NCBI GenBank assembly: GCA_038883855.1 | Contig: JAVZLH010000001.1 | Location: 32,001-96,000 of the forward strand | Direction of reading: 5' to 3' | Source: Candidatus Bathyarchaeia archaeon | Lineage (GTDB): Archaea > Thermoproteota > Bathyarchaeia > Bathyarchaeales > Bathycorpusculaceae | Length of the DNA: 64,000 bases | Shown: positions 51,164 through 54,017 of the stretch, in pieces | Numbering within the stretch: position 1 is the first letter of the stretch | How the letters are laid out: every line of letters begins with the position of its first letter | The notes under the pieces: generated by a model | The model's input: only the letters and a program-made list of their open reading frames with translations | Told to the model about the DNA's origin: nothing | The model's database searches: none | Translations under genes and position numbers: made by a program

Positions 51164-51351
51164 AAACCAACGATTAAAAAATTTTTACTAAAGCTTTATG
51201 GAATATTCAAAGTTTTAAAGAATCAAAAGTTGCAGTTCTAGAAAATCATTTGAAAAATCTTTTTTAAAATTGAAATTTATTTCCTAAAAATGCTTATTAA
51301 ACTTGAAGAGCATGAATAAAGCCCATAGAAGCAAACAGAAGTGGCTTGCTA

Positions 51352-53181
51352 ATGTGTGGAATCTTTGGCTGTGTACTGAAAGAAGGAAACGCCGCACCTG
51401 TAATACACGCTGCCCTTAAAAGGCTTGAATACCGCGGCTATGACTCAGTTGGAGAGGCAACTCTCCACGAAGGTAAACTGTACATAAAGAAGGATCAAGG
51501 AAAAATAGACGAAGTCCATGCAATTCACAATTTAGATGATATGCCTGGAAGAATAGGCATTGGGCACACAAGATGGGCTACACACGGCGCACCACTGAAA
51601 GTTAATGCACATCCCCATGTTGATTGTAAAGGACAAATTGCCTTAGTTCACAATGGCATTATAGAGAATTTCAACGAGTTAAAGTTGGAACTGGAGAATC
51701 AAGGGCACATTTTTGTGTCAAAAACCGACACTGAAGTATTGACCCACCTTATTGAAGAAAATTTTAAAGCCAACCCTTCTTTGAGCTTGACCGACGCTGT
51801 TCTCGCGGCCATTAAAAGAGTTGAAGGGTCCTACGCCATTGCTGTTATCTCAACAAAGGAACCCGACAAAATAGTCTGTGCAAGAAACGAAAGCCCCCTT
51901 GTAATTGGGATAGGAGAATCGTCAATTTACTGTGCCTCAGACATTCCAGCTTTTCTTCCCCTAACCAACAGAGCTGTCATAATTGACGATGGGGAACTTG
52001 TCACTCTCACTCAAGAAGGCTTCGAAATCAAGAAAATCCGCGACCAAAGCCTCGTTAAGCGAGAGCCAAAACTCATTGATTGGTCGCCTGAAATGGCCGT
52101 CAAACAAGGCTATCCCCACTTTATGCTTAAAGAAATTCATGAACAGCCCATCTGTCTGCGGAACACCCTTAGACTGCAGGAACATTACCTTGATTTGATG
52201 GCGACATTTCTCGACCGCGCCAAAGAAGTTTTCCTAGTGGCTTGTGGAACATCCTATCACGCATGCTTAGCCGCATCCTACATGTTTTCTAAACTTGCTT
52301 TTTTGGCGACCTATCCCGTAATAGCCTCAGAATTCATCGAGCAACACGGCAAGTCCGTAAACATTGACAGCACAATATTGGCGGTGAGCCAGTCAGGCGA
52401 AACAGCAGACACATTGGCATCTGTTAACGCGGCGCGTCAAAGAGCAGCCACAATTTTAGGGTTGACAAACGTGATCGGCTCAACTCTCACAAGGATTTCC
52501 CGTGTCTACATCAGTCAACAGTCTGGTCCAGAGATTGGAGTGGCTGCAACAAAAACGTTCACTTCGCAACTTTCCGTTTTGGCGCAGCTAGCCCTTAGAC
52601 TGGCTAAGAAGAGAGGTAAGGTTTCACAGGACGAAATGGACTTCTTGGCAGAGAAGCTTGAAAAGCTTCCAGACATTGTTGAAACAATAATTAAAACACA
52701 AGAGGAGAAGGTTAAACAAATAGCTAAAAAGTACAAGGACGCTAAAGTGTTCTTTTTCTTAGGCCGCGGAATCAGCACCGCCACTGCCTATGAGGGCAGA
52801 CTGAAACTCATGGAAATAGCCTACGTGCCAGCCATAGCCTTCCCAGCTGGAGAAAGCAAACATGGTCCAATAAGCCTAATAGAACCTGGTTTCCCCGTGG
52901 TTTTCATCTGCCCCAAAGATGAGACGCATAAAACTTTGATAGGTAACATAATGGAGATGAAAGCCAGAGGGGCCTCAATAATTGCCATAATCGAGGAAGG
53001 AGACGAAGAGATTAAGAGGTTGGCCGATGACTATGTTGAAGTGCCTAAGGGCGTTCCAGAAATATTGTCGCCCATACCCTTCGTGATTCCCTTACAACTT
53101 TTAGCATATTACATGAGTATTGAAAAGGGGTATGACCCAGATACTCCGAGAAATCTAGCGAAGTCAGTTACAGTAAAATGA
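51352..53181 (+). CDS. glmS: glutamine-fructose-6-phosphate transaminase
   Basis: MCGIFG, LEYRGYDS, GHTRWATHG, SQSGET, PRNLAKSVTV. Confidence 0.98.
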   Translation: MCGIFGCVLKEGNAAPVIHAALKRLEYRGYDSVGEATLHEGKLYIKKDQGKIDEVHAIHNLDDMPGRIGIGHTRWATHGAPLKVNAHPHVDCKGQIALVHNGIIENFNELKLELENQGHIFVSKTDTEVLTHLIEENFKANPSLSLTDAVLAAIKRVEGSYAIAVISTKEPDKIVCARNESPLVIGIGESSIYCASDIPAFLPLTNRAVIIDDGELVTLTQEGFEIKKIRDQSLVKREPKLIDWSPEMAVKQGYPHFMLKEIHEQPICLRNTLRLQEHYLDLMATFLDRAKEVFLVACGTSYHACLAASYMFSKLAFLATYPVIASEFIEQHGKSVNIDSTILAVSQSGETADTLASVNAARQRAATILGLTNVIGSTLTRISRVYISQQSGPEIGVAATKTFTSQLSVLAQLALRLAKKRGKVSQDEMDFLAEKLEKLPDIVETIIKTQEEKVKQIAKKYKDAKVFFFLGRGISTATAYEGRLKLMEIAYVPAIAFPAGESKHGPISLIEPGFPVVFICPKDETHKTLIGNIMEMKARGASIIAIIEEGDEEIKRLADDYVEVPKGVPEILSPIPFVIPLQLLAYYMSIEKGYDPDTPRNLAKSVTVK

Positions 53182-53308: not shown

Positions 53309-54017
53309 TTGGAAAAGAAGGAATGGGAAAAACTCATCGAAAACTTAGTAAAAGAAGGCGTGCTTCGCTCGCCAAAAGTTATCAAGGCCATGCGTTCTGT
53401 GCCTCGAGCGAAATTTCTGCCGGAAAACATGCAGTCCTACAGCGCAGTGGACACGCCGCTTCCAATTGGTTTTGGGCAAACAATTTCGGCGCCACATAGC
53501 TTCAGCCTTCCGCTGAGCTAGGCGATACATGGTTGCAATAATGAATGAAGCCCTCCAGTTGGAAGTCGGCCATAAAGTGCTGGAAGTTGGAGCGGGTTCG
53601 GGGTGGCATGCAGCCACGATAGCCGAGATAATCGCGCCAAGCGATGCGCCTAGAAGCGGGTGGGGACATGTATACACTGTTGAGATAATTGAGGGATTAG
53701 CTGAGTTTGCTAGAAGAAACGTTATGAAGGCTGGATATGGCGACCGCGTCACAATAATTTGCGCTGACGGGTCGATGGGCTACCCTGAAAAGGCGCCCTA
53801 CGATAGGATAATTGTGACGGCTGCGGCTCCAGATGTTCCAGCCCCTCTCATTGAACAGTTGAAGCCTGGTGGAATAATGCTTATTCCTGTTGGGAGTGCA
53901 CACTTGTTTCAAAGTCTCATAAAAGTTGTAAAAGAACCTGATGGAAAAATTAAAAAGGAGAATCTTTGTGGTGTTGCTTTTGTGCCGTTAACTGGGCGTT
54001 ATGGTCACAAAATTTAG
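53309..54017 (+). CDS. pcm: protein-L-isoaspartate O-methyltransferase in two exons (53309-53495 + 53527-54017; 225 aa spliced)
   Basis: Exon 1 VPRAKF...[14 protein letters not shown]; exon 2 MVAIM...[27 protein letters not shown]...PVG, FVPL; removing 31 nt joins them in frame. Confidence 0.9.
53496..53526 (+). other. putative 31-nt archaeal BHB intron in pcm mRNA
   Basis: CGCC (53490-93) / GGCG (53521-24) 4-bp helix flanked by 3-nt bulges ACA and ATA; internal hairpin TAGCT(T)CAGC-cttcc-GCTGAGCTA; canonical cuts give CCA CAC ATG. Confidence 0.85.

Follow-up and report, generated by a model that had tools for sequence, protein, structure and literature searches.

How can a gene whose reading frame is interrupted within its most conserved motif still specify a complete enzyme? 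The question is raised by pcm, the gene for protein-L-isoaspartate O-methyltransferase, in a Candidatus Bathyarchaeia archaeon (contig JAVZLH010000001.1, positions 32,001 to 96,000; this whole stretch of 64,000 nucleotides is hereafter called the window). Thirty-one nucleotides separate the two parts of the gene, and we consider it very probable, on strong support from comparative sequence evidence, that they form a bulge-helix-bulge (BHB) intron in the pcm mRNA (53496-53526). The window sequence by itself proves nothing on this point; the comparative data decide the case.

The two pieces of pcm and the predicted fold between them

Analysis of the open reading frames (ORFs) revealed two pieces of the gene on the + strand. 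The first ORF, 53309..53521, ends at a TAG stop (53519-53521) and would yield 70 amino acids if translated alone, and the second, 53529..54017, encodes 162 amino acids beginning with MVAIMNEA. The Pfam profile PCMT (PF01135) is matched at positions 3-59 by exon 1 (E = 5.5e-14) and at positions 61-208 of 210 by exon 2 (E = 2.4e-45). In the intron-less relative L006, positions 4-208 are matched in one piece. The matches of both pieces therefore identify the split gene as pcm, and the sole profile position absent between them as the His of the conserved SAPHM motif. A preliminary description of this stretch had reported a frame-shifting 31-nucleotide insert with an in-frame TAG in pcm, which the ORFs and the Pfam matches confirm. 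Joining the exons would rebuild the split His codon and give a product of 62 + 1 + 162 = 225 amino acids.

The features of the locus are as follows; counts refer to the 74 aligned intron regions described in the next section.

53309..53495, + strand: pcm exon 1, TTG start, 62 codons and the C that opens the split His codon (ORF and translation, Pfam, tblastn)
53489, + strand: G able to close the 3′ bulge through C53528; GC in 73/74 regions, GU in 1/74; fixed by the Ala codon
53490..53493, + strand: 5′ strand (CGCC) of the central 4-bp helix, in exon 1 (Ala-Pro codons); 100% of cells paired
53494..53496, + strand: 5′ bulge ACA, unpaired in the minimum free energy (MFE) and consensus folds; predicted cut 53495/53496
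53496..53526, + strand: candidate intron, 31 nucleotides; frame and His codon are restored once it is removed, and relatives carry inserts at the same site
53497..53520, + strand: inner helix and loop, 9 bp with one bulged T, loop 53507-53511 (MFE fold and covariation)
53521..53524, + strand: 3′ strand (GGCG) of the central helix, within the intron (MFE fold, covariation, consensus fold)
53525..53527, + strand: 3′ bulge ATA, predicted cut 53526/53527; first A intronic and invariant
53527..54017, + strand: pcm exon 2, bases 2 and 3 of the His codon, 162 codons, TAG stop (ORF and Pfam PCMT)

The MFE fold of 53470-53550 recovers the 4-bp helix, the 3-nucleotide 5′ bulge and the hairpin. Judged by this fold and the ORF list, all positions that the preliminary description had given for CGCC, ACA, the hairpin, its loop, GGCG and ATA are correct. 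No known RNA was found in the window by ARAGORN or Rfam. In the mechanism that we propose, CGCC at the end of exon 1 would pair in the pre-mRNA with GGCG at the 3′ end of the intron, forming a 4-bp helix flanked by two 3-nucleotide bulges and stacked on the intron's own hairpin. The splicing endonuclease EndA, probably a heterotetramer of catalytic and non-catalytic subunits, would cut after the second nucleotide of each bulge. The ligase RtcB would then join the exons, rebuilding the His codon of a 225-amino-acid enzyme, and the intron would probably be circularised.

Same-site inserts, covariation and coding constraint

Exon 2 was searched in 40 relatives drawn from the genus, family and order of the window's genome, of which 39 gave a match. 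Both exons were located in 30 loci from those relatives, to which 80 public Bathyarchaeia loci were added, the two sets overlapping in genomes. The exon 1 piece was located by tblastn in 109 of these 110 loci; the remaining one, L106, was excluded as its exon 1 runs off the contig. After removal of identical regions, 74 distinct intron regions were aligned for covariation analysis.

In the set restricted to the genus, family and order, an insert lies between the Ala-Pro and Met codons in 24/30 loci, whereas the remaining 6 have the His codon alone. The combined set revealed an insert of 28-40 nucleotides at exactly this site in 83/109 loci, the other 26 being without one. Nine lengths occur: 31 nucleotides (36 loci), 32 (27 loci), 30 (6 loci), 29 and 28 (5 loci each), and 33, 34, 35 and 40 (one locus each). 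As these lengths fall into all three modulo-3 classes, the insert cannot be translated; all 7 distinct inserts with a length divisible by 3 hold in-frame stops. A comparison of pcm among relatives had been suggested in the preliminary description, and what it brings out is a same-site insert in most loci together with a 4-bp helix kept by compensatory changes.

Across the 74 sequences, 98.8% of the 740 cells of the structure are paired. Cells with double changes number 72 against 18.9 in shuffled alignments, and 0/500 shuffles, which ignore relatedness, reach the observed covariation score. With the 3′ partners shifted by 1-3 columns, pairing falls to 16-39%. This slide control, like the count of independent pair types, argues against relatedness as the explanation of the covariation. 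Without guidance, RNAalifold predicts the 4-bp helix, the 3-nucleotide gap and the inner helix, and 73/74 sequences folded singly adopt the helix-bulge-helix core. The inner hairpin comprises 6-10 pairs in all 74 sequences; its five outermost pairs all display compensatory double changes, with 97.6% of cells paired. The central exon-intron helix is paired in 296/296 cells. At one of its positions GC is replaced by AU in 2 sequences and by GU in 1, so that a synonymous substitution in the Ala codon goes together with one in the intron. Among the 74 5′ bulges we found 69 ACA, 2 TCT, 2 TCA and 1 ACG, while the 3′ bulge is A-N-A in 74/74 (AAA 48, ACA 10, AGA 10, ATA 6).

A cut after the second nucleotide of each bulge yields CAC or CAT (His) in 74/74 regions, the split codon being composed of one exon-1 base and two exon-2 bases. 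For the window, removal of 53496-53526 or of 53497-53527 gives an identical product. In the lineages with a TCT bulge, a cut one base later would produce Leu instead of the invariant His; these variants thus place the cut at the canonical position. The preliminary description had applied this rule (AC/A and AT/A) to obtain a complete 225-residue Pcm, and the arithmetic extends to the relatives: after removal of the insert, 83/83 intron-bearing loci read open to the natural stop. In the accessible part of the report on the archaeal cbf5 intron, cleavage is likewise placed between the second and third bulge residues (PMC2738675), and the pcm arithmetic fits. From these sequence patterns we infer cleavage and ligation of the pcm pre-mRNA.

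Selection on the exons was measured by the Nei-Gojobori ratio of nonsynonymous to synonymous substitution (dN/dS) on rows with ungapped, full-length exon matches (54 intron-bearing, 21 intron-less). The median was 0.080 (maximum 0.16; 210 evaluable of 600 sampled pairs) for intron-bearing genes and 0.088 (18 evaluable pairs) for intron-less ones, with 0.15 for exon 1 alone and 0.07 for exon 2 alone. With dS near saturation (median 1.7) these ratios are rough, yet far from neutrality. By this measure both exons are under purifying selection, in line with the earlier view that both halves are intact and not in decay.

The motif codons carry a further trace. The Ala codon is GCG in 72/74 intron-bearing regions versus 8/23 intron-less ones (Fisher p = 4e-10, a significance overstated by ignoring kinship). 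At the third position of the Pro codon, where the bulge begins, A or T stands in 74/74 with the intron versus 14/23 without it, and the His codon is CAC in 73/74 versus 17/23 (p = 6e-4, overstated for the same reason). As judged from these codon counts, constraint on the synonymous sites of the motif is confined to genes with the intron.

Competing explanations, splicing enzymes and points against splicing

Four other explanations have to be set against splicing. EndA might cut the pcm message without productive ligation, the BHB then serving to inactivate or down-regulate it. Such a role would account for the conserved BHB and its covariation, and yeast has mRNA decay initiated by the tRNA endonuclease, according to the accessible part of a review (PMC10485636). 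It leaves unexplained the His restored in every region, the frame open in every intron-bearing locus and the purifying selection on exon 1. These genomes also hold no intact pcm elsewhere: in the related genomes searched for a second copy, the second matches were weak paralogs (E ~1e-5). We therefore regard cleavage without ligation as very unlikely.

A split gene is hardly more credible, whether the 70- and 162-residue pieces are made separately as two polypeptides or the 162-residue piece alone is made from the ATG at 53529. An ATG does follow the insert directly and is used by gene callers (97/120 best database matches have 162 residues), but it codes for the motif's conserved Met, and intron-less genes have it as well. 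Moreover, the insert interrupts the best-conserved motif at the cost of the invariant His, and what follows in the first ORF is a junk tail that varies or, in some lineages, ends after 2 codons. Neither the covariation nor the constrained synonymous sites are explained by two separate polypeptides.

Translational bypassing or frameshifting, in which ribosomes would hop across the insert, has still less in its favor. A hairpin with an early stop resembles the setting of known bypass sites, of which phage T4 gene 60 provides a case. However, the window has no matched take-off and landing codons giving the right frame, the TCT-bulge lineages carry CTC (Leu) after Pro so that a hop could not restore His, and bypassing assigns no role to the exact geometry of 4 bp and two 3-nucleotide bulges. 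Just as improbable is that pcm is a pseudogene, that the insert arose in assembly or that a small mobile DNA element has inactivated the gene, as the frameshifting insert and its in-frame stop would suggest in the window alone. The comparative data already contradict this: 83 loci, each assembled independently, carry the insert and show no further lesion, dN/dS is ~0.08, and there is one copy per genome, unlike a repeat family.

Splicing through a BHB predicts that EndA and RtcB be present, and both are encoded in the source genome of the window (G000). Two genes of the EndA family, each with 185 codons and both Pfam domains (N-terminal and catalytic), were identified together with RtcB:

G000 C10:16789-17046 and C2:33944-34198: PF01974 matches of the two EndA paralogs
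G000 C2:7851-9161: PF01139 match of RtcB

One EndA paralog is closest to solved crenarchaeal chains, first 2cv8_A (E = 3e-45), then 3p1z_B, 3ajv_B and 2zyz_B, and the other to the M. kandleri and M. jannaschii enzymes. The crenarchaeal-like paralog retains the His of the EHS motif, which is catalytic, whereas the M. jannaschii-like paralog has Ala in its place. In this archaeon EndA would thus probably assemble as a heterotetramer, with one catalytic and one non-catalytic paralog. This heterotetrameric type is said to be linked to pre-mRNA splicing, judging by the title of a 2006 paper by Yoshinari. Broad specificity goes with the (alpha-beta)2 type and its Crenarchaea-specific loop; that loop and its lysine were not located in the two paralogs.

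The gene cbf5 offers a second instance in the same lineage. It is split by a BHB-type insert in 5/5 relatives checked (L144-L148), 2 of them of the window's genus, between GHGGTL and PNVTG/PKVTG at the catalytic Asp codon. The inserts measure 22, 22, 22, 26 and 31 nucleotides, and each has AGA and AAA bulges, an inner hairpin and a 4-bp helix between exon and intron. As in pcm, this central helix undergoes compensatory changes between genomes. An example from the window's genus is the following:

L146 1140..2169: cbf5 with its insert (genome G002)

Several observations weigh against a spliced pcm intron. The fold energy of the window sequence is ordinary (z = -1.22), 21/200 shuffles folding equally well, and both the shuffle test of covariation and the Fisher codon tests ignore the kinship of the sequences. 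The outer part of the motif is poorly backed. The preliminary description had added to the structure a pairing of the exon flanks, CAATT with GGTTG; while folds and covariation uphold its 4-bp helix, 3-nucleotide bulges and inner hairpin, the outer pairing occurs in only 78% of cells, with no compensatory change, and its C-G pair is present in 30/74 sequences. What remains of an outer helix is one constant G-C (G53489-C53528) and at most two invariant pairs, with no covariation. The two further possible pairs are invariant as they lie in the Ser and Met-Val codons, and G53489 and C53528 are both constrained by coding, so their constancy says little. Since the outer exon helix is unsupported, the alignment is consistent with a BHB of the relaxed kind and not of the strict hBHBh′ form, in which a helix has to close the 3′ bulge, and a relaxed motif depends on an endonuclease of broad specificity.

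The genome scans count on the same side. Both strands of the 24 contigs were scanned for a 4-bp helix, 3-nucleotide bulges and an inner helix whose removal fuses broken frames, with a decoy of equal pair number and misplaced bulges. The scan recovered pcm, with 1734 real and 1786 decoy candidates. No excess over the decoy appeared, whether under a strict filter (22 vs 17), in a relaxed short-intron scan (200 vs 217) or when an A-N-A 3′ bulge was required in the latter (11 vs 21). The genome is not rich in BHB mRNA introns, and cbf5 was not found in the window's own 85%-complete assembly. The other scan candidates look like ordinary gene junctions; weakly structured introns could escape the scan.

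A covariance model of the intron core matched only pcm in 4/5 genomes, the fifth being intron-less, with next-best matches at E ≥ 0.07. The best non-pcm match in the window's genome, C23:8210-8240, lies within an uninterrupted reading frame and was rejected as a chance resemblance. ARAGORN called 8 intron-bearing tRNA genes among 31, around which a simple motif search gave no clean BHB set. One of its calls, a tRNA-Asn with a 101-nucleotide intron (G000 C1:136148-136332), covers a stretch that reads like coding sequence and is probably false.

Distribution, known systems and annotation

The occurrence of the intron in the class was followed by a strict junction sequence pattern, which misses variant introns, so that the counts are lower bounds. 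At least 83/401 sampled genomes of the class gave one match each, and the reversed control gave 0. Besides the window's genome, the pattern is present in at least 79/167 sampled relatives in the order and at least 3/233 genomes outside it. Pcm itself was found in 345/401 sampled genomes of the class. An unrooted, weakly resolved pcm protein tree (97 rows) implies 13 changes of intron state, of which well-supported branches force 2. The economical history, and probably the actual one, would be a single gain within the order followed by repeated precise loss.

Three side observations concern the same gene. In genus g17 of the window's family, a Pcm match was obtained in only 8/40 sampled genomes, most of them >90% complete, which suggests that pcm was lost there. 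The locus L114 (G320:C46:18970-19012), from another family, matches the pattern with an inner-helix mismatch and ambiguous bulge spacing; this may be the intron in a degenerate form or with a different fold. Some of the pcm matches in more distant Bathyarchaeia (e.g. G077 and G342) contain a single in-frame TGA or TAG and no added length; these stops are not the intron and could be sequencing error, a real break or recoding.

The closest known counterpart is the cbf5 intron of Desulfurococcales and Sulfolobales. As described in the accessible part of PMC2738675, it shares with the pcm element a short BHB-type intron within a coding frame, a split codon in a catalytic or conserved motif and a predicted cut between bulge residues 2 and 3. 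The same part of that report describes an unconventional or relaxed BHB, a link to hetero-oligomeric EndA and a patchy distribution read as gain followed by loss. The Bathyarchaeia cbf5 insert lies at the site given there for crenarchaeal cbf5, and the intron is listed there as 0 for Thermoproteaceae, Cenarchaeum, Nitrosopumilus and Korarchaeum (PMC2738675). The pcm element differs in its host gene, in its Bathyarchaeia lineage, in its position after the first base of a His codon and in the 5′ half of the motif, which is canonical and well paired. For cbf5, cDNA evidence has been reported, whereas the pcm intron is known here from sequence alone. The cbf5 pre-mRNA intron is reportedly the subject of a 2002 paper by Watanabe.

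Two other BHB settings invite comparison. The intron in the 5′ untranslated region of the HVO_1309 mRNA in Haloferax volcanii is likewise an mRNA BHB processed by the splicing endonuclease, but it lies in an untranslated leader and interrupts no frame, and the enzyme is of the homodimeric type, as far as the accessible parts of PMC7714728 and PMC10485636 go. The BHBs of pre-tRNA and pre-rRNA resemble the pcm motif in having two 3-nucleotide bulges separated by a 4-bp helix (PMC5829648), and presumably in their use of EndA and RtcB. Unlike them, the pcm motif stands in no tRNA or rRNA context; its exons are coding, and one strand of the central helix is constrained by the Ala-Pro codons.

In the accessible text of the 2020 paper PMC7714728, one further BHB mRNA intron, that of cbf5, is reported besides the HVO_1309 leader, and of these two documented archaeal genes only cbf5 is interrupted inside its reading frame. 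The accessible parts of PMC7714728 and PMC10485636 bear out the statement of the preliminary description that archaeal protein-gene introns are known chiefly from crenarchaeal cbf5. The latter, a 2023 review, considers in its accessible part that more endonuclease-spliced mRNAs probably await discovery (PMC10485636). Our literature search, which most subscription journals and supplements lay outside, found no paper on a pcm intron or on mRNA introns of Bathyarchaeia, and no report of a cbf5 intron in this class.

The pcm intron would be a second archaeal in-frame case, in a different class from that of cbf5. Its 74 distinct sequences and nine lengths amount to a natural mutagenesis defining what the Bathyarchaeia endonuclease tolerates, and the gain and loss of an mRNA intron would be traceable within one order, where at least 79/167 sampled relatives have the motif in their genomes. 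A Bathyarchaeia cbf5 intron at the crenarchaeal site bears on the choice between ancient gain and repeated gain at preferred sites.

Pcm repairs aged or heat-damaged proteins. In the XBP1/HAC1 system an endonuclease excises a small structured intron and a tRNA ligase joins the exons, changing the frame of a stress-related gene; that system differs from pcm in its endonuclease (IRE1), its recognition motif and the regulation of its splicing by stress. By analogy, the pcm intron might be kept as a switch, active Pcm being gated by the EndA/RtcB pathway and splicing being an old, selectively maintained control layer in the phylum, which we take to be Thermoproteota. We consider this role unlikely. 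If it held, the unspliced mRNA would give truncated products only, and the pcm and cbf5 introns would not be two isolated accidents. The unconventional splicing of XBP1/HAC1 mRNA by IRE1/RtcB in eukaryotes is mentioned in PMC13149111.

Annotation was surveyed through the best 120 database matches of exon 2. Among these, 110 have 152-168 residues, corresponding to exon 2 alone, 97 of them exactly 162, and 9 have 225; many exon-2-only entries are named protein-L-isoaspartate O-methyltransferase. The preliminary description had expected annotation to call the gene a pseudogene, which for the most part does not occur: a 162-residue protein is called instead from the ATG after the intron. The nine 225-residue proteins were considered as possible cDNA evidence and rejected, being at most 89.5% identical to any exon-2-only protein and hence from intron-less lineages. 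The intron would thereby cause systematic truncation in annotation, and metabolic and comparative surveys would carry the truncated protein. Simple searches for frame breaks flanked by BHB elements could recover other missed genes.

The source genome is a 1.11-Mb assembly of 24 contigs with 43% G+C, 85% complete. The closest public pcm matches reach 96% identity and come from metagenome-assembled genomes labelled Candidatus Bathyarchaeota, Bathyarchaeia or Bathyarchaeales. Downstream of pcm, on the opposite strand, lies a FEN-1-like gene (XPG_N, XPG_I), and upstream a GlmS-like gene with SIS and GATase domains (window 51346..53181). The start listed for the latter is a TTG two codons ahead of an ATG followed by CGIFG. 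Its true start is presumably that later ATG, and removal of the Met would expose an N-terminal Cys.

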